Part shown: piece by piece, positions 10,146 to 50,113 of the stretch
How positions within the stretch are numbered: the stretch's first letter is position 1
Layout of the letters: each line of letters starts with the position of its first letter
Source of the DNA: Escherichia phage ECML-183-2
Sequence record: OL631481.1
DNA: 64,000 nt
Reading direction: 5' to 3' (one strand)
Translations under genes and position numbers: made by a program
The notes under the pieces: model-generated
The model's input: only the letters and a program-made list of their open reading frames with translations
What the model was told of the DNA's origin: nothing
Database searches by the model: none

Positions 10146-10224
10146 TGGAGGCGGGAATTGGATTTGAACCAATGATCTCCAGCATATGAAACTGGCGAGG
10201 ACGACCAGACTCCTCTATCCCGCT
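10146..10224 (-). tRNA. tRNA-Met(CAT)
   Basis: hand-folded cloverleaf: anticodon loop TTCATAT, T-arm ATTGG-TTCAAAT-CCAAT, encoded CCA; position 1-72 is an A-C mismatch. Confidence 0.6.
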
Positions 10225-10301
10225 ATTATGTATCCCGTGCTGGATTCGAACCAGCATCACAAAAATTGTGGATCTCTTATCCTGTAAGTCTAACGGGAAA
10301 C

Positions 10302-10375
10302 TGGTTGTTTCGACAAGAATCGAACTTGTGTCTCACGATTATCAGTCGTGGGTTCTACCATTGAACTACGAAACA
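10302..10375 (-). tRNA. tRNA-Ile(GAT)
   Basis: acceptor TGTTTCG/CGAAACA, anticodon stem CACGA/TCGTG with loop CTGATAA, T-loop TTCGATT, encoded CCA. Confidence 0.75.
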
Positions 10376-10438
10376 TTTAAAAGAATATCTCACGTCTGAT
10401 ACAGACTAACCTTTTGTCTGACGCATGAAATATTTAAT

Positions 10439-10515
10439 TGGTCGGAATTGCAGGATTCGAACCTGCGACCCTACGCTCCCAAAGCGTATGCTCTACCAAA
10501 CTGAGCTAAATTCCG
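10439..10515 (-). tRNA. tRNA-Pro(TGG)
   Basis: acceptor CGGAATT/AATTCCG, D-arm GCTC-AGTTTGGTA-GAGC, anticodon loop TTTGGGA, T-arm GCAGG-TTCGAAT-CCTGC, CCA. Confidence 0.8.
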
Positions 10516-10520
10516 TTATA

Positions 10521-10596
10521 TGGCTGGTCTGTCTGGATTTGAACCAAACCTACGACAGTCAAAGTGTCGTGTGCTACCGGACTACACTACAAACCA
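10521..10596 (-). tRNA. tRNA-Gln(TTG)
   Basis: acceptor TGGTTTG/CAGACCA, anticodon stem CGACA/TGTCG with loop CTTTGAC, T-loop TTCAAAT, CCA. Confidence 0.8.
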
Positions 10597-10694
10597 ATAA
10601 ATCATTTAATGAAGGGCAACCAGAAGAAGTGTGAGAGAAGGAGAAAACCATGAGTAAAAGAGAAAGTTTTCTGGCAACCCTTTATTAAATAATT

Positions 10695-10771
10695 TGGAGC
10701 GTTATATCGGATTCGAACCGATGCCACCGACTTGGAAGGACGGGATGCTGAACCGCTAACACTAATAACGC
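10695..10771 (-). tRNA. tRNA-Gly(TCC)
   Basis: acceptor GCGTTAT/ATAACGC, anticodon loop CTTCCAA (one stem mismatch), T-arm ATCGG-TTCGAAT-CCGAT, CCA. Confidence 0.65.
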
Positions 10772-10784
10772 TTTGTATATATTT

Positions 10785-10814
10785 ACTATACTACATTTTA
10801 CTATCGAATGTCAA
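10785..10814 (-). promoter_or_regulatory. sigma70-like promoter (TTGACA-N18-TATAGT) inside the tRNA cluster
   Basis: minus-strand TTGACA 10814-10809, 18 nt spacer, TATAGT 10790-10785; predicted start a few nt upstream of the tRNA-Gly 5' end. Confidence 0.5.
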
Positions 10815-11089
10815 TAGTTATTTAATAGGTGGGACAGTGACGAGTATCCCTTTGGGTGACTAGCCCTACGTTCGGTAAGCTAACTTAAAATAATACAAAA
10901 CCAAAGTCAAATATTATTCTTCGTTGCTGTCGATGGGAGAGCCGCTTCTTCTTTTGCCCCATCCAACCCTACTCCGGTCAAGTTTCAGGTAACTCTTTGT
11001 GTGATCAACACAATACTAAGAACACTGTCTTTCGAACAGACCTTGTGCACAGGATACGACGATCAATCACAGTGCCCTTAATGTTGTGT

Positions 11090-11164
11090 TGGTGCTCCCA
11101 CTCTGAATCGAACAGAGATCCACGGATTACAAAACCGTTGTAATAGCCATTATACTATAGGAGC
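11090..11164 (-). tRNA. tRNA-Thr(TGT)
   Basis: acceptor GCTCCTA/TGGGAGC, anticodon loop TTTGTAA, T-arm CTCTG-TTCGATT-CAGAG, CCA. Confidence 0.65.
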
Positions 11165-11255
11165 AAAGCTGGGACTCGGCAGGATTCGATACCTGCAATT
11201 CCAGAAGCCTCTTGGCGACTGGGGGGTTTACCTTAACTCTACAAGTCCATAATTC

Positions 11256-11341
11256 TGGCGATGAGTATAGGATTTGAACCTATATCGTTCTTTCGAACAC
11301 GGATTAACAGTCCGCCGCTTAAACCATTCAGCCAACTCATC
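11256..11341 (-). tRNA. tRNA with anticodon GTT (Asn-type) but type-II architecture
   Basis: acceptor GATGAGT/ACTCATC, anticodon stem GCGGA/TCCGT with loop CTGTTAA, extra variable hairpin GTTC-GAAA-GAAC, T-arm ATAGG-TTCAAAT-CCTAT, discriminator G, CCA. Confidence 0.5.
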
Positions 11342-11347
11342 TTAATT

Positions 11348-11435
11348 TGGTGGTGAGTGATGGAGTCGAACCACCCGAATCGCAATGATAACAGATTTAC
11401 AGTCTGCCCCGCTACCCCTACGGAATTAACTCACC
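11348..11435 (-). tRNA. tRNA-Tyr(GTA)
   Basis: acceptor GGTGAGT/ACTCACC, anticodon arm CAGA-CTGTAAA-TCTG, long variable arm, discriminator A, CCA. Confidence 0.8.
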
Positions 11436-11565
11436 TAAATGCTAATATTTAAATTCTTTTTAAAATAGCCAGTGTTCACACCACTAACTATGAGGTATCG
11501 GTAAAGTGGTTACCGCCACTTGCCGAAGATTTACTCTGCTAAAGTAAGCTATATTAAAAAGAACT

Positions 11566-11651
11566 TGGCGGTAGATGTAGGACTCGAACCTACACGCCGT
11601 TTCCGACTACAGTTTAGCAAACTGTCGTGGCTACCATTTCACCAATCTACC
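11566..11651 (-). tRNA. tRNA-Ser(GCT)
   Basis: acceptor GGTAGAT/ATCTACC, anticodon arm ACAGT-TTGCTAA-ACTGT, long variable arm, T-arm GTAGG-TTCGAGT-CCTAC, discriminator G, CCA. Confidence 0.8.
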
Positions 11652-11655
11652 AATC

Positions 11656-11746
11656 TGGCGGAAGGAGGGAGAGTCGAACTCCCAAGGCTCTTTCAAGCTC
11701 GGCGGTTTTCAAGACCGTTTTCGTCGCCACGTCGATTTGCCCTTCC
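11656..11746 (-). tRNA. tRNA-Ser(TGA)
   Basis: acceptor GGAAGGG/TCCTTCC, anticodon region ACGGTCTTGAAAACCGCC, long variable arm, T-arm GGGAG-TTCGACT-CTCCC, CCA. Confidence 0.8.
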
Positions 11747-11754
11747 ATACTTAT

Positions 11755-11784
11755 AATCTAACATAAAATAATGTTAGTTGTCAA
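11755..11784 (-). promoter_or_regulatory. sigma70-like promoter directly upstream of tRNA-Ser(TGA)
   Basis: minus-strand TTGACA 11784-11779 with a weak -10 about 17-18 nt downstream; tRNA 5' end at 11746. Confidence 0.35.
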
Positions 11785-11980
11785 TAGTTTTTTAAAACAT
11801 TTTACCATGAATGGTGACTCCACCAACCCCCGTTCTCAGCGAACGGTGCTCTTCGAGCATTTATGTCTTCTAATATAACCGTGGCCTTTGTTTATAATGT
11901 CTGACATACTTACCTCATTCTCTGCCACCATGATCAGTAGTGGGTTCAAATCACTTGAGCTAATTCATGTTAAAATGTTC

Positions 11981-12055
11981 TGGTGTCTTTACAAGGAATC
12001 GAACCTTGACTAAGAGTTTAGAAGACTCCTGTGCTATCCATTACACCATAAAGAC
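11981..12055 (-). tRNA. tRNA-Arg(TCT)
   Basis: acceptor GTCTTTA/TAAAGAC, D-arm GTGT-AATGGATA-GCAC, anticodon loop CTTCTAA, T-arm CAAGG-TTCGATT-CCTTG, CCA. Confidence 0.75.
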
Positions 12056-12057
12056 GT

Positions 12058-12132
12058 TGGTGGCCCTGGCTGGTTTCGATCCAGCTACCTATCGGTTATG
12101 AGCCGACAGCTCTCCCATTGAGCTACAGGGCC
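12058..12132 (-). tRNA. tRNA with CAT anticodon (Ile2-lysidine type or elongator Met)
   Basis: acceptor GGCCCTG/CAGGGCC, D-arm GCTC-AATGGGA-GAGC, anticodon loop CTCATAA, T-arm GCTGG-ATCGAAA-CCAGC, CCA; overall resembles bacterial tRNA-Ile2. Confidence 0.7.
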
Positions 12133-12925: not shown

Positions 12926-13111
12926 TCAACTAGGAATAATTTTATCCTTTTTGGTTTCATAACCAGTCCAATCTAAATCCTCCCAGCCTTCATCATCGTC
13001 TAACACATTGTCATCATCATAAGATGCAATGTTATAAATAGAACGTGGATTACAAGACATACAATCTTTAATAGGCACATGATGCCATTTGCACGGATTC
13101 TCACTAATCAT
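12926..13111 (-). CDS. hypothetical protein
   Basis: 61 aa ORF at the edge of the AT-rich divergent region. Confidence 0.35.
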   Translation of the reverse strand: MISENPCKWHHVPIKDCMSCNPRSIYNIASYDDDNVLDDDEGWEDLDWTGYETKKDKIIPS

Positions 13112-13590
13112 TGCACACCTCCATTCTTGTTAAGATGTTTCGTACTGTACTTCATACTGATCTATAGATCAAGTATTATTTATAATAATTTATTATTTTA
13201 TTTTTAATTGATAGAAGTTGATCTGTACGTACCAGTTCTGATACACTGTACCTGTTTGTTAGATCTAATAATTATTTATTATTAATATTTAATAATTATT
13301 AATCTAGTACGGAGTACAGTACTTGAGTACAGAGTACTACATCAACAACCTAAAACCTTAACTCGCTGCGCTCGTTAATAGATTTCTAGGGTAGCATACT
13401 TCGAAGACAAAAGTCAAGAGTTTTATTAAAATTATTTTCTGTGTGCAAAAACCTTGCTTAAACAGGTAGCAATAGTATAGTCTATAACATAAGCTTCATA
13501 AGAAGCTCGTAGAGCAAGTTAACTTACTAGGTAAGGTGATTTACATCTTATATATAAAAAGTGCGTCAGAGACGCGTTTAGGAGGCTAGA
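13112..13590. promoter_or_regulatory. AT-rich divergent intergenic control region with palindromes and GTAC-rich repeats
   Basis: perfect 14 bp palindrome TGATCTATAGATCA; repeated AGTACAG/GTACT units; separates minus and plus transcription blocks. Confidence 0.5.
13454..13481 (+). promoter_or_regulatory. sigma70-like promoter (TTGCTT-N16-TATAGT) for the plus-strand early operon
   Basis: hexamers read directly from sequence upstream of first plus-strand gene. Confidence 0.4.
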
Positions 13591-13914
13591 ATGAGATTTA
13601 CAAGACAAGAGGTGGTTGTGCTGGACGAAGCAATGACAATGATCGTCTTTTACTACGAGGATATCTTCTGTGCAGCATATCATTTAAATGACATTCAGAT
13701 TGAATGGCAGCAGATAGCATTCTTGTTGGACAAGAGTAATCATTTAGATGGCTTTGAGTATTTGGAATGGGATGGTGCAAAGGAAGTTAAAATTGTAGGG
13801 TTAAATCACGATCAGATTGTTGACATGCAATGTAAGTTGTGTCATTATCAGTTCTCAAACAAAGTCAAACTCGAAAGGCAATTGGAGGTGGTTAAAGATG
13901 ATAGCACTAATTAG
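13591..13914 (+). CDS. hypothetical protein
   Basis: 107 aa ORF, first gene of the plus-strand block, RBS AGGAGG. Confidence 0.5.
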   Translation: MRFTRQEVVVLDEAMTMIVFYYEDIFCAAYHLNDIQIEWQQIAFLLDKSNHLDGFEYLEWDGAKEVKIVGLNHDQIVDMQCKLCHYQFSNKVKLERQLEVVKDDSTN

Positions 13915-14014
13915 TGAGAATCCAGTCCTTGCAACAATTGTTCTGATTTTTGCCTTATGTGTGGTTCACGATATTCTGGTAAGCTATTTTGACAATAAAG
14001 GAGGTAAGAAATGA
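13898..14014 (+). CDS. small membrane protein (38 aa)
   Basis: RBS GGAGGTGG before ATG; single hydrophobic helix. Confidence 0.35.
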   Translation: MIALISENPVLATIVLIFALCVVHDILVSYFDNKGGKK

Positions 14015-16389: not shown

Positions 16390-16746
16390 ATGAGTGGTAT
16401 TGAAAACAATATTTGTTACCAACCTCTTACCTGGATTGGTGAGGGTCATTATGCGCAACGTGTTATCGTCTGTGCTGCGAATAAGTATATTTTGAATAAT
16501 GGTGAAGAGTTAATTATTCCTTGTGTTCGACATGCAAATCCTGTACTATATGCACAGTTAAGCGTGTTGAAAGAAGCAGGTGTAATCAACAAAACTTTGT
16601 GCACACCAGATAATCAAGGCTTTATCGATCAGTATTACAATTGGTGGAGTCGTGCGGATGCTTACGTCATCGCGGAAAATGCTGACCAGATCGACCATGA
16701 GCGTAATGGTCACGACCATGAATTATTTAGCGAGGGATTATACTAA
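16390..16746 (+). CDS. hypothetical protein
   Basis: 118 aa ORF. Confidence 0.5.
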   Translation: MSGIENNICYQPLTWIGEGHYAQRVIVCAANKYILNNGEELIIPCVRHANPVLYAQLSVLKEAGVINKTLCTPDNQGFIDQYYNWWSRADAYVIAENADQIDHERNGHDHELFSEGLY

Positions 16747-17297
16747 TGTTTATTACAAGCGATTTGCATTTTATGCATAAACGTATTCGAGAGTTTGCTC
16801 CTGAATATCGTCCGTGGGAAGATATGGACCACATGACAGAAGCCTTGATCGAAGCATGGAACAAATGTGCTACTACTCCTGGTGTTAAGATGTGGCATTT
16901 GGGCGACTTCTGTTTCGGAACTGAAGAAGATACCCGTAAAATTGCTTCCCGTCTCCAAGGAGATATCACCTACTGTGTTGGGAACCATGACTACAGCAAA
17001 CACCGAGAAGTGCTTGCAGAGTATGGAGAAGTGGTGTATTATGACGAAGTGAAATATCAGAAGCTGTTCTTCGTCTTAAGCCATTACCCTATGGCCTCCT
17101 GGAATAAACAAGGTCGTGGATCAATCATGCTACACGGGCATTCCCACGGATCTTTCCCTGATGAAGCTTATGGTAAAATGTTAGATGTGGGTTGGGATGC
17201 ACACGGAAAAATCTTGCATTTTGATGAGATAATTTCTATGATGAGTAAACGAGATATCGTGACTGTAGACCATCACAAAATAATCAAAGGAGAGTAA
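16746..17297 (+). CDS. calcineurin-like metallophosphoesterase (candidate RNA 3'-end healing phosphatase)
   Basis: motifs DLHF, GDF, GNHD, HGHSHG; directly upstream of ligase and kinase. Confidence 0.65.
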   Translation: MFITSDLHFMHKRIREFAPEYRPWEDMDHMTEALIEAWNKCATTPGVKMWHLGDFCFGTEEDTRKIASRLQGDITYCVGNHDYSKHREVLAEYGEVVYYDEVKYQKLFFVLSHYPMASWNKQGRGSIMLHGHSHGSFPDEAYGKMLDVGWDAHGKILHFDEIISMMSKRDIVTVDHHKIIKGE

Positions 17298-17298
17298 T

Positions 17299-18231
17299 GT
17301 GACTAAATTTAATTGCGACGATTTGGTTGAAAAAGGTTTAGTTCATAAGAAAACATATAAAGAAGGAGAGTATTCTGGTCTATCTGTTCTTAAGTATAAG
17401 AACAAAGTTTTCTGGGATAACTTATGGAGCATTGATTCTCGTCTTCTAGAATGTCGCGGAATCGTTGTTGATGCTGATGACAATGTTGTTATTTGGCCTT
17501 TCACTAAGATTTTTAATCGTTTTGAGAATGGCACAGATCTACCAGCGGATGAACTTGTAGATGTGGTTCGTAAAGTAAATGGTTTTATGGCCTCTGTAGG
17601 TGTATATAAAGGTCAACTTATTGTATCGACAACAGGAAGCCTTGAATCAGATTTTGCAAGTATTGCAAAGAATCATATTGTTTCAGAGTGTGATGACATA
17701 GAACATTTCATCAAATGGACAGAGAGTGCAAAAGCAACTTTCCTTTTTGAAATCTGCGATCCTTCTGATCCGCATATTGTCGAAGAAGAACCAGGTGCAT
17801 ACTTAATTGGTGCCAGAATTCAAAATCCTGATGGGACAAGTTTTATGTTACCTGAAGGTGCTCTTGATGGAATTGCTTCTGTCACCAAATTTAAGCGTCC
17901 TGAAGTTCATTCGATGGTTAAGTTTTCAGATGTTGTTGAAATGTCTAAACATTGTAAACACGAAGGGTTTGTAGTTCGTGAAACAAACTATCCGTTCAAC
18001 TTGCTTTTAAAAATTAAATCACCACACTATCTTACTAAGAAGTTTCTTATGCGTGGTGGAGATAAAAAGTGGGATCTGATTTGGGATAATCCAAAAAATG
18101 CCAAACAAATTGTTGACGAAGAATATTACGCTTTGTTAGAATGGATTCGAAATAATTTTACGAAGACTCAATGGGCTGCTTTAAATCAGCAAGAGCGACG
18201 TGAAAAAATCGAAAACTTCTTTGGGGGATAA
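17299..18231 (+). CDS. ATP-dependent RNA ligase-like nucleotidyltransferase
   Basis: motif I KVNGF, motif IV EGFVVRE, motif V LLKIKS; GTG start; flanked by phosphoesterase and kinase. Confidence 0.6.
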   Translation: MTKFNCDDLVEKGLVHKKTYKEGEYSGLSVLKYKNKVFWDNLWSIDSRLLECRGIVVDADDNVVIWPFTKIFNRFENGTDLPADELVDVVRKVNGFMASVGVYKGQLIVSTTGSLESDFASIAKNHIVSECDDIEHFIKWTESAKATFLFEICDPSDPHIVEEEPGAYLIGARIQNPDGTSFMLPEGALDGIASVTKFKRPEVHSMVKFSDVVEMSKHCKHEGFVVRETNYPFNLLLKIKSPHYLTKKFLMRGGDKKWDLIWDNPKNAKQIVDEEYYALLEWIRNNFTKTQWAALNQQERREKIENFFGG

Positions 18232-18636
18232 ATGAAACAACTTATCATTTTACGTGGCGTTTCAGGTGCTGGTAAATCTACGGTAGCAGAAATTATTTCT
18301 GAAGGTTATTGGCCTATCTGTGAGGCAGATCAATATCATTACACAGAAAGTGGTGTTTACGATTGGAAGCCAGAAAATGTAGGTAAAGCACACGCATGGT
18401 GTCAGAGTATTGTTCGTGATGCTATGAAATCTGATCTTAAAAAGATTATTGTTTCTAACACTTCAACCACAGAGAAAGAACTTAAACCTTATTTAACTCT
18501 TGCTGAAGAGTTTGGTTATCAAGTTATCTCTTTAGTTGTTGAAAATAGACACGGTAACGATTCAATTCACGAGGTTCCACAACATATTCGTGATCAACAA
18601 GAGAAACGTCTTCGTGGTTCACTTAAACTTCAATAA
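18232..18636 (+). CDS. P-loop kinase, polynucleotide 5'-kinase-like
   Basis: Walker A GVSGAGKST near N-terminus; 134 aa; ATGA-coupled to the ligase gene. Confidence 0.55.
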   Translation: MKQLIILRGVSGAGKSTVAEIISEGYWPICEADQYHYTESGVYDWKPENVGKAHAWCQSIVRDAMKSDLKKIIVSNTSTTEKELKPYLTLAEEFGYQVISLVVENRHGNDSIHEVPQHIRDQQEKRLRGSLKLQ

Positions 18637-19173: not shown

Positions 19174-19391
19174 GTACTGCATTTTATGTTCGTAGCGGGG
19201 ACGAGGATTTTCTAGCTACTTTTGATGACGGTGATCTTGAAGATATGTATGAAGATATGCTTGACTATGCCAAAGGGCAAGGTTTCACAAGCATTGATTA
19301 TATGTTGGCAACATCTACAACGTTACTCGACGCAGATTTGGATGAAGTGTGTAACAGATTGAAAATTTCAGTTTTTAAATGGGAGGACTAA
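19170..19391 (+). CDS. small acidic protein
   Basis: 73 aa, Asp/Glu-rich. Confidence 0.4.
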   Translation: MSTAFYVRSGDEDFLATFDDGDLEDMYEDMLDYAKGQGFTSIDYMLATSTTLLDADLDEVCNRLKISVFKWED

Positions 19392-20506
19392 TGCAACAAA
19401 CAAATCAAACGCTGTATGGTAAAGATTCAAAAGGAAAACTTAAACAGTGGACAGTGTATACAGATGGTGCAGTTGTTACTGTAGCTCATGGAAGGGTAGG
19501 TGGAAAAATCACAGAAAAATCTTATACAGCAGAAGCAAAAAACATTGGTCGTTCCAATGAAACAACACCGGAAGAACAAGCTGAACTTGAAGCTTTTGCC
19601 AAATGGACAAAACAGTTAAAGAATGGCTATTATAAAACAAAAGAAGAAGCTGAAAACCATGTTCCTTCCACACCAATGAAATGCCAGGATTATAAAGATT
19701 ATCCTGAAAAGGTTGTGTTCCCTGGTTATGCACAATACAAACTGAACGGGTTACGTTCTATGATTAACATGAAAGGGGAGTGTTTATCAAAAGCTGGGGA
19801 AGTGTATAACCTACCACCTCATTGGAAAGGTATTCCAAACTTTATTAGTGAAGTTGTTGGTCATCCTCTTGATGGTGAAGTGTTTGCTGGGTTAGGTGTC
19901 CTTAGTCTGCAACAAATTAACAGTGCTTGGAAGAAGCATAATGCAAATACACCTTTGCTGAATTATTACGTATACGATATTCCAGTTCCAGGCCTACCGT
20001 TTGAAAAACGTGTTGATGCTCTTGCTGCTCTTAAGGCAGTAGTTGAAGATTATGGTCTTGACGAGCTTATTTGTGTAGTTCATACAGAGTATATTGAAAA
20101 CCAAGAACAGTTTGATGCTTTCTATGAAAAAGCTTTACTTGAGAAAGCTGAAGGTGTAGTATATCGTAATGCTCACGGAGTTTACGAATTTGATAAACGT
20201 TCTTATGACGTTATTAAACGTAAGCCTCGCCACACCCTTGAAGTTAAAGTAACACATTCAAAAAGTGATAAAAATGGCGATGGAGTGTTGACAGGTGAGA
20301 TGGAAAATGGTAAAGTAGTCGAATTCTTAATGCGTAAAGATGCTCATGAGACTATCAATTATCGTAAAGCAGAGAATGCTTCTACCTTGATTAATCAGTT
20401 CGTTGAAATAGAGTATGAAGAATTTTCAGATGAAGGTATTCCAACAAAACCTGTTGGTGTTCGTATTCGAGAAATGATCCCAGGCACTTGGGAACCAGCA
20501 GAATAA
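19379..20506 (+). CDS. ATP-dependent ligase (DNA or RNA), nucleotidyltransferase superfamily
   Basis: motif I YKLNGLR (KxNG), motif IV EGVVYR, motif V VIKRK; 375 aa. Confidence 0.55.
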   Translation: MGGLMQQTNQTLYGKDSKGKLKQWTVYTDGAVVTVAHGRVGGKITEKSYTAEAKNIGRSNETTPEEQAELEAFAKWTKQLKNGYYKTKEEAENHVPSTPMKCQDYKDYPEKVVFPGYAQYKLNGLRSMINMKGECLSKAGEVYNLPPHWKGIPNFISEVVGHPLDGEVFAGLGVLSLQQINSAWKKHNANTPLLNYYVYDIPVPGLPFEKRVDALAALKAVVEDYGLDELICVVHTEYIENQEQFDAFYEKALLEKAEGVVYRNAHGVYEFDKRSYDVIKRKPRHTLEVKVTHSKSDKNGDGVLTGEMENGKVVEFLMRKDAHETINYRKAENASTLINQFVEIEYEEFSDEGIPTKPVGVRIREMIPGTWEPAE

Positions 20507-20515
20507 GGAGGAAAA

Positions 20516-20710
20516 ATGTTCTTAGCCATTTTAATCGTTTTCAGTGTGCTTTCTTTTTATTGTATGAATGCTTCTGAAAACTTTCCTAAGAATTCAAAGA
20601 AAAGAACCGTATGTGTTGCGATTGATTCATGTATGTCTGGAGTTGGGTATGCGGTAGTTTCTTGTTTCTTAGCTTATCATTGTGCAAAATACCTGGAGGC
20701 ATTTTTATGA
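20516..20710 (+). CDS. small membrane protein
   Basis: 64 aa, hydrophobic. Confidence 0.4.
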   Translation: MFLAILIVFSVLSFYCMNASENFPKNSKKRTVCVAIDSCMSGVGYAVVSCFLAYHCAKYLEAFL

Positions 20711-20889
20711 TAATTTTAGCAACAATTCTTATGATGTTGATAGCAATTGCTATTATAATTCTGGCATCTTTTCCGGCGGATAAATGGTATTTCAATATTC
20801 CACGTATGCTTGTTTTCGGTTTCGCAGGGATTTACATGGGTGAGTCTGTAGCAAATATTAGCAACTTTCTAGAAAGCTATTTTAAATAA
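20707..20889 (+). CDS. small membrane protein
   Basis: ATGA overlap; two hydrophobic helices. Confidence 0.4.
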   Translation: MIILATILMMLIAIAIIILASFPADKWYFNIPRMLVFGFAGIYMGESVANISNFLESYFK

Positions 20890-20898
20890 GGAGTTATA

Positions 20899-21624
20899 AT
20901 GATCGAGAATTTTTTTAAAGATATTAAATTCGATACTGAATTTTTCAAAAATGCAGCAAAGCACGTGATTGATTGGAATGCCAAAGCACGAGGTGGTGAA
21001 CAACCGGAATTCACTCAAGAGCTATTTATGTCCCAAATCGGGTTCGTTCGTGAAGAGCTTAAAGAGTATGAAACAGCCGCGAAAGTAAACGATCATGTAG
21101 AACTCTTGGATGCAGCAGCGGATATTTTTGTAGTATCCAGTTATCTGACCTACATGTTCTTTGGTGAAGAACATACGATGAATTTCTTGGACTATGCTGT
21201 AGGCGATGTTTTTACTCCAACTGTGTATACTGATTTTGATGCTTTGGAACAAACATTTACAGAGCCAGTTCAAATGGCACTAATGGCTGCTGGTATTATG
21301 CGTATGTCTCGTGACACTCTAATCCGTTCAAAATATCCAGAAAAGAAAGTTATTAAAGAGGTATTGAAAAGTAATGATTCCAAGTATCCAACTAAACAAC
21401 AGTTGCTGAAAACTTGGAAAACTTCGGATATCGATTCAGCCATTGCACAAGAATGCGCTGCAATTGAAGAACGAAATGCCAATCGTCCAGAAGGGGCATA
21501 CACTGGTGTTCATGCTGTTTATAATGAAAAACAGAAAGTGTATGTGTTCTTTGATGATAAAGGTAAGATCATGAAACCATCGACCTTTGTCAAACCTAAT
21601 ATTGCAGGTATTATTAATAAGTAA
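20899..21624 (+). CDS. MazG-like nucleoside triphosphate pyrophosphohydrolase (putative)
   Basis: all-alpha NTP-PPase-like EExxE...ELLDAAADIFVV motif. Confidence 0.4.
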   Translation: MIENFFKDIKFDTEFFKNAAKHVIDWNAKARGGEQPEFTQELFMSQIGFVREELKEYETAAKVNDHVELLDAAADIFVVSSYLTYMFFGEEHTMNFLDYAVGDVFTPTVYTDFDALEQTFTEPVQMALMAAGIMRMSRDTLIRSKYPEKKVIKEVLKSNDSKYPTKQQLLKTWKTSDIDSAIAQECAAIEERNANRPEGAYTGVHAVYNEKQKVYVFFDDKGKIMKPSTFVKPNIAGIINK

Positions 21625-21680: not shown

Positions 21681-22559
21681 ATGTTTGTAAAATCTTTTAA
21701 ATCCGCTCTGCCTATGGTTGTTGGTGACAATGCTTCTGTAGCATCCCTTAACAGCATTACAGATATTCCTCTGGAATTTGTAACAGCAGAAGGCTCCCAG
21801 TCACACACTATCGGTCTTGTTCGTTTCGAAGATGACTCTAAATTTGTAAAAGAGTTTTCAGATCTTGAACTGCTTAATGTAGGTCAATCTGTGAAGAAGG
21901 TAGATAAAAAGAAAGTTAAACGTATTCTGAATGAACGTCTAGAAGAAATGCGTCAGGACATGGAGAGCGAAGGTAAAGAGTTTTATGTCGATAAAGAAGT
22001 AGTCAAAGCAATGAAAGAAGATATTGAATTTGCACTATTGCCTGAAACAGAACCTGAAGATTTCTTTAACTATGTTGTCTTGGATAAAACTACGAATCTT
22101 CTTTATGTTCTTAATGGAAGTAAAAAGGTTGCAGAAGAGATTACTTCTTTCCTCCGTTCCGTCCTGGGGACTTTCCCTTCGGTAGGTTTTAGTGTGCACG
22201 AAGAAGCTATTGTAAAAGGTTTTGGTGAATTGCTGGAGAATCACGAAGCAGATCGTATTACTCTCGGAAATTATATCAAAATGGAGGATAGCGAGGGCGT
22301 TGTTGTTTGGAGTAAAGAATCTCTATACGAGTCTAAAGCTGTAGAACTAAAAGAAGATGGTAAAGATGTTGTTGCAATCGGTCTTGAATATGACGGTGTT
22401 GTAGATTTTGTAGTGGATAAAGAGTTTAAACTTTCTAAACTACGTTTTCCGAAATATTTTGCAGACGAAGAAGGTAGTATTGAAGCTTCAGTCCTTCTGT
22501 GCTTCAATGAGATTCGAGGTCTGATGGAAGATTTAACCAAAGCAACAATCCTTAAATAA
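21681..22559 (+). CDS. RdgC-like recombination-associated protein (putative)
   Basis: 292 aa; N-terminus and FLRSVLGTFPSVGF segment resemble bacterial RdgC (from memory, not aligned). Confidence 0.4.
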   Translation: MFVKSFKSALPMVVGDNASVASLNSITDIPLEFVTAEGSQSHTIGLVRFEDDSKFVKEFSDLELLNVGQSVKKVDKKKVKRILNERLEEMRQDMESEGKEFYVDKEVVKAMKEDIEFALLPETEPEDFFNYVVLDKTTNLLYVLNGSKKVAEEITSFLRSVLGTFPSVGFSVHEEAIVKGFGELLENHEADRITLGNYIKMEDSEGVVVWSKESLYESKAVELKEDGKDVVAIGLEYDGVVDFVVDKEFKLSKLRFPKYFADEEGSIEASVLLCFNEIRGLMEDLTKATILK

Positions 22560-48308: not shown

Positions 48309-49124
48309 ATGCCGCGTAGAGTCATATTCATAACTGGCGCAGGACTATCTGTGGATAGCGGTATCCCAGCTTTTAGAACAGATACTTCTTCAGGGGAGGC
48401 GTTATGGTCTTCTTATAATCTTTCTGAAGTCTGTGACATTTTCAACTTCCGTGACGGTTATCAGCAAGAACAAGGTATTCTGGATGCTATGGGCGGTTTA
48501 GATGCGGAAGGATATAACCTCTACCGTAAAACTCACGACTTTTACAATAAACGTCGCGCGGAATTAGAGAAAGTTGACCCGAATCCGGCACATCTTCAGA
48601 TTGGGGAATGGTTCAAAAAACATGGTGCAGAAAAGATTATTAACATCACTACTAACGTTGATGACCTCCTTGAACGAGCAGGAGTAGATAGGGAAGAAGT
48701 GCTACATGTGCATGGTTTTCTTCCTGAAATTACTTTTCAAAGAAAAGCTGGACAACCTACAATTGTAAAAGATGTTGGTTATCAAGCCATAGATGTAGAT
48801 GACTACCATTATGTAAAACCTAATGTAATCTTCTTTGGGGAAGCTGCTCCACTTTACACAGATATGTATCATATTTTTGATACACTGACGGCTCAAGATA
48901 TGGTTATCGTTGTAGGCTGCTCTAACCAAGTAATCAACTTCAACTGGGAACTCTTCCCTGCCCTGAATATTGGGGTTAAGATGGTTGTAGTTAACCCAGG
49001 TTTGAATTTTGTAGAACAAACTCTCTACGAAGAACGTGGAGTGCTTGTCTACCGAGAGAAAGCAGGAACAGTCTTCAGTGATGAAGGCTTTATCAAAATG
49101 GTTGAAGACCATTTAAACAAATAA
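48309..49124 (+). CDS. Sir2-family (sirtuin-like) NAD-dependent protein lacking the zinc ribbon
   Basis: ITGAGLSVDSGIPAFR, LHVHGF, PNVIFFGE, VIVVGCS; no CxxC pairs. Confidence 0.65.
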   Translation: MPRRVIFITGAGLSVDSGIPAFRTDTSSGEALWSSYNLSEVCDIFNFRDGYQQEQGILDAMGGLDAEGYNLYRKTHDFYNKRRAELEKVDPNPAHLQIGEWFKKHGAEKIINITTNVDDLLERAGVDREEVLHVHGFLPEITFQRKAGQPTIVKDVGYQAIDVDDYHYVKPNVIFFGEAAPLYTDMYHIFDTLTAQDMVIVVGCSNQVINFNWELFPALNIGVKMVVVNPGLNFVEQTLYEERGVLVYREKAGTVFSDEGFIKMVEDHLNK

Positions 49125-49133
49125 ACCACTCAA

Positions 49134-49152
49134 GGGGCTTCGGCCCCTTTCT
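49134..49152 (+). terminator. hairpin GGGGCTTCGGCCCC (copy 3 of 3)
   Basis: identical 14-mer followed by TTTCTT. Confidence 0.4.
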
Positions 49153-49167
49153 TATTAGGAGAATAAA

Positions 49168-49440
49168 ATGACTGAAGAAATCCGTGATTACTACCTTGCA
49201 CATTACGTTTACTACTTTGCCAATGCTACACAAAAAGGGGAAGGTAATCTTTACTTGGCAACAGGACATGGAACAGGCGTTAGGAAATCCAATATTGATA
49301 ATGCCTTGGCTCAAGTGGCTGCGGGGCTAGAAGATAAACTTCAAACACCTGTAGTTGTAGTGATGCAAAATATAAGTTACCTAGCAAGTTGTACTGAAAC
49401 CGAATTTAACGCGTCTGAGACGCAATCTAACGAAGAATAA
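49168..49440 (+). CDS. hypothetical protein
   Basis: 90 aa; last plus-strand gene. Confidence 0.45.
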   Translation: MTEEIRDYYLAHYVYYFANATQKGEGNLYLATGHGTGVRKSNIDNALAQVAAGLEDKLQTPVVVVMQNISYLASCTETEFNASETQSNEE

Positions 49441-49446
49441 AACAAA

Positions 49447-49475
49447 GGCACCCAAGTGGGTGCCTTTTCTATTTT
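49447..49475 (+). terminator. intrinsic terminator closing the plus-strand block
   Basis: GGCACCC-AAGT-GGGTGCC followed by TTTTCTATTTT. Confidence 0.65.
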
Positions 49476-49509
49476 AGAGCGTCTCTGTTCGATTTAGGTG
49501 GGTTCTAGC

Positions 49510-49740
49510 TTACTTGTGTAGTGCTCTCTCGTATAACTCAATAATTAATTCATCTTCTACTGTAATACGCGCCATTTGATCCGTCTTAAGGATTGTTGGT
49601 TGGTAGTGGTGCATTTCACTATTGATACTACAATCCCATTCGTCATAACCTAAATACTCTCCTACATGGACCTTAACCATAAAGGGAAACGGGTTATCTA
49701 CCAAAAATGCCATACAACCTTCTTCGATTTTATTTAACAC
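49510..49740 (-). CDS. hypothetical protein
   Basis: 76 aa; GTG start after AGGAGG; lies between convergent terminators. Confidence 0.35.
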   Translation of the reverse strand: MLNKIEEGCMAFLVDNPFPFMVKVHVGEYLGYDEWDCSINSEMHHYQPTILKTDQMARITVEDELIIELYERALHK

Positions 49741-49764
49741 ACGACCTCCTATTGCTACAGATAT

Positions 49765-49788
49765 GAAAAAACCCGCCGAAGCGGGTTC
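49765..49788 (-). terminator. intrinsic terminator for the minus-strand block
   Basis: ACCCGC-TTCG-GCGGGT followed by TTTTTT on the minus strand. Confidence 0.6.
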
Positions 49789-49831
49789 TATTGCTACGAT
49801 AGGATCACTATCCTATAGTATTGTTTCTGTG

Positions 49832-50113
49832 TCAAGCCTTAGCGTAGAAAAACTTCTCATATTCAGATTTTGTTACGATTGTGGGGCAATCTTTTGTTCC
49901 ATCCTCGATAACAGGGGCTTCTACCATTCTGGTGTTGAATAAGCAATAAGTTCCACGCATGTAAATACCCAGTTTTGTTTCTACGATGTGCTCTTTACTT
50001 ACGCTTGAAAACTTAATCTCACCATCGGAGTCTCTTATAGCAATAAGCGCATGTTCGGGCCAATCTTTTCCTTTTGCTCCTAAAGCATTATACAATTCTT
50101 GAACGAGTTCCAT
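49832..50113 (-). CDS. hypothetical protein
   Basis: 93 aa. Confidence 0.45.
   Translation of the reverse strand: MELVQELYNALGAKGKDWPEHALIAIRDSDGEIKFSSVSKEHIVETKLGIYMRGTYCLFNTRMVEAPVIEDGTKDCPTIVTKSEYEKFFYAKA

Follow-up and report, generated by a model that had tools for sequence, protein, structure and literature searches.

The gene at positions 19391-20506 on the plus strand of the window (the whole 64,000-nt stretch of Escherichia phage ECML-183-2 DNA analysed here, GenBank:OL631481.1) is an ordinary, previously annotated ATP-dependent DNA ligase gene of a phAPEC8-like E. coli phage. [quoted passage not shown] The window showed 98% nucleotide identity to Phapecoctavirus genomes (phAPEC8/ESCO13-like coliphages), the genes for the DNA ligase and the RNA ligase both carry annotation already in more than 100 phage genomes, and the product of 19391-20506, which is 99% identical to P0001, is annotated as an ATP-dependent DNA ligase in ESCO13 and Schickermooser. 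For the window itself the result is of small importance, since both genes are already annotated in published genomes and their roles are deducible by homology; its value lies in the by-products.

The open reading frame of the original prediction (19379-20506, plus strand, 375 aa) was confirmed to be present. The true start of the ligase is likely the ATG at 19391, located 12 nt downstream of the ORF start and overlapping the TAA stop of the upstream ORF; among the homologues listed, nearly all were approximately 357-381 aa long and the closest were 371-372 aa. The features of the gene, with residues numbered from this ATG, were as follows:

19382-19387, plus strand: Shine-Dalgarno sequence GGAGGA for the 19391 start, seen in the sequence; an RBS is annotated at the same place in ESCO13
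19391-20506, plus strand: ATP-dependent DNA ligase gene, 371 aa from the ATG used in relatives (PF01068, phrog_114)
19391-19675, plus strand: N-terminal domain (NTD), residues 1-95, mixed beta/alpha, of the ASFV-ligase DNA-binding type (AF2, Foldseek)
19676-20227, plus strand: adenylation (nucleotidyltransferase) domain (AD), bearing motifs I, III, IIIa, IV and V
19739-19756, plus strand: motif I, KLNGLR, with predicted AMP acceptor K117 (K121 in the 375-aa ORF) and N119 (N123) in place of the usual Asp
19868-19882, plus strand: motif III, LDGEV (translation, alignment position)
19904-19912, plus strand: invariant S-L-Q, in which Leu173 corresponds to Leu211 of ASFV ligase and Phe635 of human LIG1
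19964-19978, plus strand: motif IIIa, YYVYD (translation, alignment position)
20150-20167, plus strand: motif IV, EGVVYR (translation, alignment position)
20210-20224, plus strand: motif V, VIKRK (translation, alignment position)
20228-20503, plus strand: OB-fold domain (AF2 secondary structure; Foldseek; weak match to PF14743 DNA_ligase_OB_2, E 0.005)
20438-20473, plus strand: motif VI-like segment IPTKPVGVRIRE, including Thr352-Lys353 (alignment)

Profile searches placed the product among the DNA ligases. PF01068 (DNA_ligase_A_M) was matched at 36.8 bits against a cutoff of 26.2 with the whole 204-position model covered, phrog_114 was matched with an E-value of 2.2e-74, and a profile of 43 homologues searched against the PDB retrieved DNA ligases only, the best being ASFV ligase (E 2.4e-23, residues 37-361). 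HMMER aligned KLNG with motif I of solved ligases (KLDG in Lig E, 4d05; KRNG in ASFV ligase, 6imj), the KxDGxR motif with its catalytic Lys being present as KLNGLR with Asn at position +2, as in ASFV ligase, which is active and has been crystallised. Motifs III, IIIa, IV and V were found in order at the expected alignment positions; IV and V had been named beforehand and were confirmed, and III and IIIa were found in addition. Translation and alignment also bore out the Asn reported in motif I of both ligases, and the placing of this motif about 100 residues from the N-terminus was right as an approximation, its Lys being residue 92 in the RNA ligase and, depending on the start, 117 or 121 in the DNA ligase. 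Among the 43 homologues, K117, G120, R122, D161 and E163 (motif III), E254 and G255 (motif IV), and K276 and K278 (motif V) were invariant. The counterpart of motif VI, IPTKPVGVRIRE, retained K353 and R360 in all homologues and lacked the canonical Arg-Phe pair, Thr352-Lys353 being aligned with Leu402-Gln403 of ASFV ligase and Arg871-Phe872 of human LIG1.

The AF2 model of the DNA ligase (pLDDT 93.1) was superposed by Foldseek over its full length on 6imn, 6iml and 6imk, closed complexes of ASFV ligase with DNA (TMq 0.78-0.79, approximately 410 columns including the NTD), as compared with a TMq of at most 0.60 for ligases without an ASFV-type N-terminal domain. The sequence (HMM) alignment likewise extended into the NTD, from ASFV residue 74, and the OB fold predicted by AF2 superposed on ligase OB domains in Foldseek. 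No Pfam match above cutoff was obtained with the N-terminal or the OB segment in isolation, and the NTD was covered by no Pfam family. Sequence comparison and modelling together indicate an ATP-dependent DNA ligase organised, like ASFV ligase, in three domains (NTD-AD-OB). Assignment to the Lig E equivalog (NF006592/PRK09125) was rejected, with a score of 56.5 bits against a cutoff of 200 and an extra 95-residue N-terminal domain in the phage protein.

All ORFs of 50 aa or more were scanned with the HMMs of the two families, filters off, and with the pattern K.[DN]G.R, and no second copy of a DNA ligase was detected. In the close relative MK373788, which has genes for a DNA polymerase and a primase/helicase of its own in its 151-kb genome, a single DNA ligase is annotated, and a second one, whether ATP- or NAD-dependent, is absent from the full annotation of the 151 kb. 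By homology, Lys117 of motif I would attack ATP to give ligase-AMP, the AMP would be passed to the 5′-phosphate at a nick, and attack by the 3′-OH would then seal it, with the beta-rich NTD, the adenylation domain and the OB domain closing together round the nicked duplex DNA. For the phage genome, the enzyme would serve in lagging-strand joining and in repair; it may not be strictly “replicative”, since the phage can also draw on E. coli LigA. What the enzyme seals (DNA or RNA-containing nicks), which cofactor it uses and how faithfully it ligates are predicted from homology.

The RNA ligase gene upstream was found between two genes for putative end-healing enzymes:

16746-17297, plus strand: metallophosphoesterase, 183 aa, candidate 3′-end healing enzyme (Pfam Metallophos, 24.9 bits against a cutoff of 21.5; phrog_547, E 6.5e-56)
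17299-18231, plus strand: Rnl1/Trl1-type ATP-dependent RNA ligase, 310 aa, GTG start (PF09511, phrog_562, 2c5u, Foldseek)
17572-17583, plus strand: motif I of the RNA ligase, KVNG, with Lys92, aligned to KEDG (Lys99) of T4 Rnl1
18232-18636, plus strand: P-loop kinase AAA_33, 134 aa, candidate 5′-OH polynucleotide kinase (Pfam, 38.3 bits against a cutoff of 27; phrog_2071, E 1.4e-57)

The RNA ligase matched PF09511 (RNA_lig_T4_1) at 58.6 bits, the cutoff being 28.3, and phrog_562 with an E-value of 1.4e-70. A phmmer search of the PDB with its sequence alone gave no match, a profile of 41 sequences retrieved T4 Rnl1 (2c5u, E 2.5e-10), and Foldseek matched the protein to Trl1-LIG and T4 Rnl1 with E-values of approximately 1e-13. 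The essential residues of T4 Rnl1, which we take to be R54, K75, F77, K99, E159, E227/G228 and K240/K242, correspond at the aligned positions to R53, K70, K92, E151, E222/G223 and K238/K240, invariant among homologues, and to F72, nearly so. The motif I Asn was present in 121/121 sequences of the RNA ligase, and the Asn of KVNG would be a trait of this protein's own lineage. For the phosphoesterase and the kinase, the candidate roles were assigned from family and PHROG matches and from conserved synteny, in that distant contigs keep the metallophosphoesterase directly upstream and the kinase directly downstream of the RNA ligase; the kinase also matched phrog_505 (polynucleotide kinase, E 6e-9) and is a “putative polynucleotide kinase” in Schickermooser, and sequence matches in the PDB were weak or generic (phosphoesterase aq_1665, E 3e-6; T4 Pnk for the kinase, E 0.54). 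It is proposed that the RNA ligase, the flanking metallophosphoesterase and the P-loop kinase would heal and seal broken RNA, probably tRNA. The PF01068/phrog_114 matches of the one gene product, the Rnl1/Trl1 matches of the other and the phosphoesterase and kinase flanks support the earlier suggestion that one may be the DNA ligase and the other the RNA-repair ligase. Phosphoesterase, Rnl1-like ligase and kinase form a conserved three-polypeptide set for RNA healing and sealing, unlike T4 Pnkp/Rnl1 in composition. The T4 RnlA equivalog (TIGR02308), which includes the C-terminal tRNA-specificity domain, was rejected for the RNA ligase (25.2 bits against a cutoff of 242), the match ending at T4 residue 249. 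A block of 10 phage tRNA genes is located near the cassette.

The original prediction had further allowed that the two KxNG proteins are paralogues with divided specificity, and had treated their Asn residues as matching. Such a pair would go back to a gene duplication within the phage lineage, one copy having taken over DNA and the other RNA substrates. Both proteins do belong to the covalent lysine nucleotidyltransferase superfamily, their genes are 1.1 kb apart on the same strand, and the model of the RNA ligase still matches ASFV ligase by fold (Foldseek, E approximately 2e-5), but BLASTP of one against the other gave an E-value of 7.3, profile-profile alignment with hhalign gave a probability of 0.1%, and neither family HMM matched the other gene with filters off (hmmsearch --max). 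Their best solved relatives also differ (ASFV DNA ligase versus T4 Rnl1 and Trl1), as do their architectures, NTD-AD-OB as against an Rnl1 N-module, NTase domain and helical C-domain, and in relatives the DNA ligase partner has KLDG or is another, T4-like ligase altogether. In distant contigs KLDG was found in the DNA ligase next to a retained KxNG RNA ligase, and therefore the shared Asn is independent in the two lineages. Such a duplication is hardly credible; in the pairwise alignment and profile searches that had been recommended, the two genes fell into different families, DNA ligase versus Rnl1/Trl1 type, and they appear from their sequences to be separate branches of the nucleotidyltransferase superfamily.

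It is also very unlikely that the product of 19391-20506 is a second RNA repair ligase with RNA or RNA-splinted substrates as its main targets, a role that could be suggested by KxNG, which Trl1 and some Rnl3 RNA ligases typically have, and by the position of the gene 750 bp downstream of the RNA-repair cassette. All significant sequence and fold matches of the product were to DNA ligases, it has an OB domain and an NTD of the ASFV duplex-DNA-binding type, and it is the only DNA ligase of the phage; moreover, D and N interchange freely in the DNA ligase family, and sugar specificity is not known to depend on the residue at motif I +2, which in RNA ligases can be Asp, Asn, His, Met or Ser. KxNG has already been documented in the RNA ligases Trl1 and MthRnl and, as Asn153, in the DNA ligase of ASFV. 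Another explanation, that the Asn/Leu active site marks a mismatch-tolerant ligase of relaxed fidelity like that reported for ASFV ligase, sealing imperfect or damaged nicks such as those left by restriction or nuclease attack, agrees with the sharing of the whole three-domain architecture of ASFV ligase and of two of the four ASFV residues (Asn153 as N119, Leu211 as invariant L173). However, Thr352-Lys353 replace ASFV Leu402-Gln403, and swaps of the ASFV nick-site residues lowered activity and left discrimination unchanged, no tie to fidelity being found (PMC6344480), so we regard this explanation as improbable.

The preferred reading, a DNA ligase in which Asn at motif I +2 would be a tolerated isosteric substitute for Asp, was examined across the family. 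Asn was present in 108/121 close sequences (the query and 120 homologues) and Asp in the other 13; among 143 representatives of 50%-identity clusters, the position was D in 88, N in 54 and E in 1. Arg was found in motif VI in 0/161 Asn sequences versus 26/101 Asp sequences. Among the representatives, Arg at position 352 accompanied D in 26 and N in none (Fisher p 8e-7, uncorrected for phylogeny), the association being read from a MAFFT alignment and a quick NJ tree with no correction for shared ancestry. A rough NJ/Fitch count gave approximately 34 D/N switches and approximately 13 Arg changes. Asp and Asn swap repeatedly at motif I +2 across this very large, mostly phage family. In LIG1-type enzymes the motif I Asp is salt-bridged to the motif VI Arg, as is the case for Asp570-Arg871 of human LIG1 (PMC6344480, which also describes ASFV Asn153). 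In this family Asn was found only where that Arg has been lost, as at Thr352-Lys353 here, and because of this loss a carboxylate would have no partner and an amide would suffice. Loss of Arg would permit Asn without forcing it, since 62/88 Asp-bearing representatives also have no Arg. The family is thus a natural experiment on the acidic residue of motif I, with approximately 34 Asp/Asn switches and Asn excluded wherever motif VI has its Arg.

The family comprises at least 3,500 clusters at 50% identity, mostly phage or metagenomic, and also includes pithovirus and asfa-like virus ligases; its representatives were 28-35% identical to residues 74-411 of ASFV ligase, with E-values down to 7e-35. 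Previous work treated ASFV ligase as a singleton, described its DNA-binding domain as “completely novel” and its active-site residues as “unique”, and proposed it as a drug target on these grounds. Yutin and Koonin (2009) had already grouped it with bacterial and phage ATP-dependent ligases; in the literature searched, no publication linking its N-terminal domain to phage ligases was found. The “unique” features of ASFV ligase are widespread in phages. Its nick-site quartet (Asn153, Leu211, Leu402 and Gln403), of which 2/4 are present in the phage ligase (N119, L173), varies across the family and is therefore no criterion of membership. As a tentative and rather doubtful extension, the ASFV NTD fold and Asn/Leu may be hallmarks of this phage and metagenomic family in which the Asp-to-Asn change and the disappearance of the motif VI Arg are linked by mechanism and produce a “loose” site for nick binding, with altered fidelity. 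If true, the coliphage ligase would be a tractable bacterial model for the ASFV enzyme and possibly a useful mismatch-tolerant ligase. ASFV ligase has thousands of full-length phage relatives, and its features can therefore be studied in an E. coli phage.

Among known systems, ASFV ligase (AsfvLIG, NP419L; 6imj, 6imk, 6iml and 6imn) has the same domain order as the phage enzyme, with a mixed alpha/beta DNA-binding NTD where a helical DBD would otherwise stand, followed by adenylation and OB domains, and shares with it the Asn of motif I (KRNGVR with Lys151/Asn153; KLNGLR in the phage) and Leu at the position of human LIG1 Phe635. The two are only approximately 21% identical pairwise, the phage protein is approximately 50 residues shorter, and the motif VI pair is Thr-Lys in the phage but Leu-Gln in ASFV. 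Their hosts also differ, the phage ligase working in a bacterium, and base-excision repair, together with Pol X, is the function assigned to ASFV ligase, whereas the phage enzyme would be the sole ligase of a replicating phage genome. Lig E (4d05, 6gdr, 8u6x; NCBIfam PRK09125; E 1.7e-19 for 4d05) and Chlorella virus ligase (2q2t; profile E approximately 2e-16), motif I of which was studied by Sriskanda and Shuman (2002, as cited in PMC4797309 and PMC6035275), share the adenylation and OB core and motifs I-VI, but both are without the N-terminal DNA-binding domain, have KxDG and reached a Foldseek TMq of at most 0.60. For the RNA ligase, T4 Rnl1 (gp63; 2c5u, 5tt6, 9do4) and the Trl1 ligase domain (6n0t, 6n67, 9qw7) have in common with the phage protein an Rnl1-type N-module and NTase fold, and fungal Trl1 also has KxNG. 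In T4 Rnl1 motif I has Asp (KEDG) instead of Asn, and the protein has 374 aa as compared with 310 aa, the phage enzyme being 64 residues shorter with a shorter helical C-domain. T4 Rnl1 is paired with Pnkp, and the phage RNA ligase likewise lies beside putative end-healing enzymes; however, Pnkp of T4 is bifunctional with a DxD phosphatase, whereas the phage cassette has a separate metallophosphoesterase and a separate 134-aa kinase.

The plus-strand ORF 19379-20506 was present in the window, and translation together with HMMER alignment bore out the original prediction that it carries Asn in motif I: its KLNG aligned to KLDG of Lig E (4d05) and KRNG of the African swine fever virus (ASFV) ligase (6imj), and the predicted motifs IV and V likewise fell on motifs IV and V of these two solved ligases. 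The proposed start at 19379 had to be corrected. The gene begins in relatives at ATG 19391, which shares bases with the TAA stop codon of the preceding ORF and has GGAGGA on its 5′ side (19382-19387), and homologues are about 357-381 aa long for nearly all those listed and 371-372 aa for the closest; because these three features favour ATG 19391, residues are numbered from the 371-aa form (K117, N119). The following motifs were read by translation:

19739-19756, plus strand, motif I, KLNGLR
19868-19882, plus strand, motif III, LDGEV
19964-19978, plus strand, motif IIIa, YYVYD
20150-20167, plus strand, motif IV, EGVVYR
20210-20224, plus strand, motif V, VIKRK

A nucleotide search with a 5-kb query around this region matched 126 phage records, of which 55 had at least 80% of the query covered and 64 had a best match of 95-99% identity. 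Among the top matches listed, the Phapecoctavirus Escherichia phages phAPEC8, ESCO13 and Schickermooser were ~98% identical, and since they annotate both genes, as "ATP-dependent DNA ligase" and "RNA ligase (and tail fiber attachment catalyst)", the window is, judged by its sequence, that of a known phage with a gene order already known. In the complete annotation of one relative (98% identical in nucleotide sequence across the 5-kb region) there are a single DNA ligase and a single RNA ligase, along with a family-A DNA polymerase, a DnaB-type primase/helicase, a UvrD-type helicase and ribonucleotide reductases; scanning all ORFs with HMMs, filters off, and for the motif revealed no further ligase. 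The DNA ligase gene shares a rightward block with genes for a MazG-like pyrophosphohydrolase, RdgC and exonucleases, and its most likely task would be to join Okazaki fragments and close repair nicks in the phage's DNA. Directly downstream of the ligase are:

20516-20889, plus strand, two overlapping small ORFs (64 and 86 aa), hydrophobic-rich, just after the ligase
20899-21624, plus strand, MazG/PRA-PH-like nucleotide pyrophosphohydrolase
21681-22559, plus strand, RdgC-family protein

The two small ORFs possibly encode small membrane proteins; as relatives annotate hypothetical genes of 195 nt and 183 nt at 20516-20889, translation of the 86-aa ORF probably begins further in. A MazG-like gene is likewise found 3′ of the DNA ligase in L007, a contig of a distant relative. 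It was also noticed that GC skew is negative up to 14 kb, positive between 14 and 49 kb and negative afterwards, with both sign flips (~13000-14000 and ~49000-50000) coinciding with switches of transcription direction between gene modules.

The upstream gene (17299-18231), also predicted to carry Asn in motif I, indeed has KVNG at 17572-17583, which aligned to KEDG (Lys99) of T4 Rnl1 in a 41-sequence profile. Its 310-aa product passed PF09511 (58.6 bits against a cutoff of 28.3), matched PHROG 562 and matched T4 Rnl1 by profile with an E value of 2.5e-10, and in fold it is as close to the Trl1 ligase domain as to T4 Rnl1 (both E ~1e-13). The essential residues of T4 Rnl1 have invariant counterparts among its homologues (F72 nearly so). 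The protein has 64 residues fewer than T4 Rnl1, and its score missed the cutoff of the T4 RnlA equivalog. It belongs to a tight three-gene string (16746-18636, plus strand), flanked as follows:

16746-17297, plus strand, metallophosphoesterase, ending 1 nt before the GTG start of the RNA ligase
18232-18636, plus strand, 134-aa AAA_33 P-loop kinase, starting directly after the RNA ligase stop
10146-12132, minus strand, 10 tRNA genes (Met x2, Ile, Pro, Gln, Gly, Thr, Asn, Ser, Arg), ~5 kb upstream of the string

The same string occurs in the distant contigs L005 (4439-6282) and L007 (4421-6310), where the RNA ligase is only 50% identical. It is best read, by analogy with T4 Pnkp plus Rnl1, as a putative healing-and-sealing set for RNA, probably tRNA. 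Its three polypeptides differ in make-up from the T4 system. A Thg1-family gene (3′-5′ nucleotidyltransferase, tRNA-His guanylyltransferase-like) is present in L007 (2854-3561) and in L008 (2095-2802), ~1.5 kb 5′ of the string in a distant relative, in keeping with a tRNA-repair theme. Just 5′ of the string in L005 (1380-4195) are genes for PRPP-synthetase-like, NAPRTase and Macro-domain proteins, which may act in NAD+ salvage or ADP-ribose handling.

The two ligases had been proposed to be either a DNA ligase and an RNA-repair ligase or paralogues with divided specificity. The former proved right, one being of PF01068/ASFV type and the other of PF09511/Rnl1-Trl1 type; paralogy is contradicted by the comparison of the two proteins, in which nothing but the superfamily fold was detectably shared (hhalign probability 0.1%; BLASTP E 7.3), and by the lack of HMM cross matches. 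Motif I Asn is present in 108 of 121 close DNA-ligase sequences (the query and 120 homologues; Asp in the other 13) and in all 121 RNA-ligase sequences, and on these counts is conserved rather than due to chance. The match between the two genes is a coincidence, each lineage tolerating Asn independently: in distant contigs the RNA ligase retains KxNG, and the nearby DNA ligase is either of the same family or a 457-aa T4-like enzyme, in both cases with KLDG.

The DNA ligase passed PF01068 (36.8 bits against 26.2) and matched PHROG 114 (ATP-dependent DNA ligase; E 2.2e-74); the Lig E equivalog cutoff was missed (56.5 against 200 bits), and no Pfam model covered the N-terminal 95 residues. PDB matches of a 43-homologue profile (A1) were DNA ligases only, the best being the ASFV ligase (E 2.4e-23) over residues 37 to 361, that is, part of the N-terminal domain and the whole adenylation and OB domains. 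With a confident AlphaFold model (mean pLDDT 93.1), Foldseek ranked first the closed ASFV ligase-DNA complexes 6imn, 6iml and 6imk (TM 0.78-0.79, ~410 columns), and in Lig E, T4, Chlorella virus and Prochlorococcus ligases only the two-domain core was matched (TM at most 0.60); full-length matches among predicted viral structures included pithovirus, Solivirus, abalone asfa-like virus, a crAss-like phage and an Acinetobacter phage. These profile, Pfam and full-length structural results indicate an ASFV-type three-domain ligase. An exhaustive profile search gave 18,409 family representatives at E <= 1e-3, a number that falls to 3,505 at E <= 1e-30; nearly all of the 150 best are full-length (350-400 aa), and representatives were 28-35% identical to ASFV ligase residues 74-411 (E down to 7e-35). 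Six representatives of 706-785 aa (P0244, P0270, P0281, P0293, P0296 and P0306), all outside the window, have the catalytic motif split by an intein-like insertion of ~330-400 residues directly after the motif I Gly (KL[D/N]G|C...HN|CR).

In human LIG1, a salt bridge under the nick, flanked by Phe635 and Phe872, links Asp570 of motif I to Arg871 in the OB domain; the ASFV ligase has Asn153, Leu211, Leu402 and Gln403 at these positions (PMC6344480). The family alignment gave:

Residues at the four positions
Phage DNA ligase: N119, L173, T352, K353
ASFV ligase: N, L, L, Q
Sizeable family subgroup: D, F, R, F (canonical)

Positions 352-353 lie within the motif VI counterpart, GIPTKPVGVRIRE in the phage DNA ligase and GIPRFPVGIAI in canonical members. 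Among 143 representatives (50%-identity clusters), the motif I +2 residue was Asp in 88, Asn in 54 and Glu in 1, and Arg at position 352 occurred 26 times with Asp and never with Asn (Fisher p 8e-7, not phylogeny-corrected); for all 263 aligned sequences the counts were 26 of 101 with Asp versus 0 of 161 with Asn. A quick NJ tree with Fitch parsimony gave ~34 Asp/Asn switches and ~13 Arg changes, which suggests that the position is labile and that the association does not reflect one single inherited event. We infer that the carboxylate is no longer needed once its Arg partner is lost, and that the isosteric amide can then be tolerated. The literature agrees with a role that depends on context and is not essential: neither Asn99 of MthRnl nor the Trl1 Asn is required, the equivalent residue of human LigIV is unnecessary on a pre-adenylated substrate, Asp29 of the Chlorella virus ligase is required for later steps, and among RNA ligases the position is occupied by Asp, Asn, His, Met or Ser (PMC4797309, PMC6035275). 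In Trl1, the Asn touches a water molecule that belongs to the catalytic metal complex.

The N-terminal domain of the ASFV ligase has been described as a completely novel fold and its Asn153, Leu211, Leu402 and Gln403 as unique (PMC6344480), and in a 2020 review the enzyme was a lone node in a similarity network (PMC7470946). Yutin and Koonin had already put it among bacterial and phage ATP-dependent ligases (PMC2806865), so the phage connection is not new in outline; our literature search found no paper on the N-terminal domain and Asn common to ASFV and phage ligases. The phage gene itself is an ordinary, annotated one of a structurally characterised kind. Its wider interest is limited to two points, namely that a motif VI Arg appears to exclude Asn from motif I, and that the supposedly unique ASFV architecture, together with the Asn, would be common in phages.
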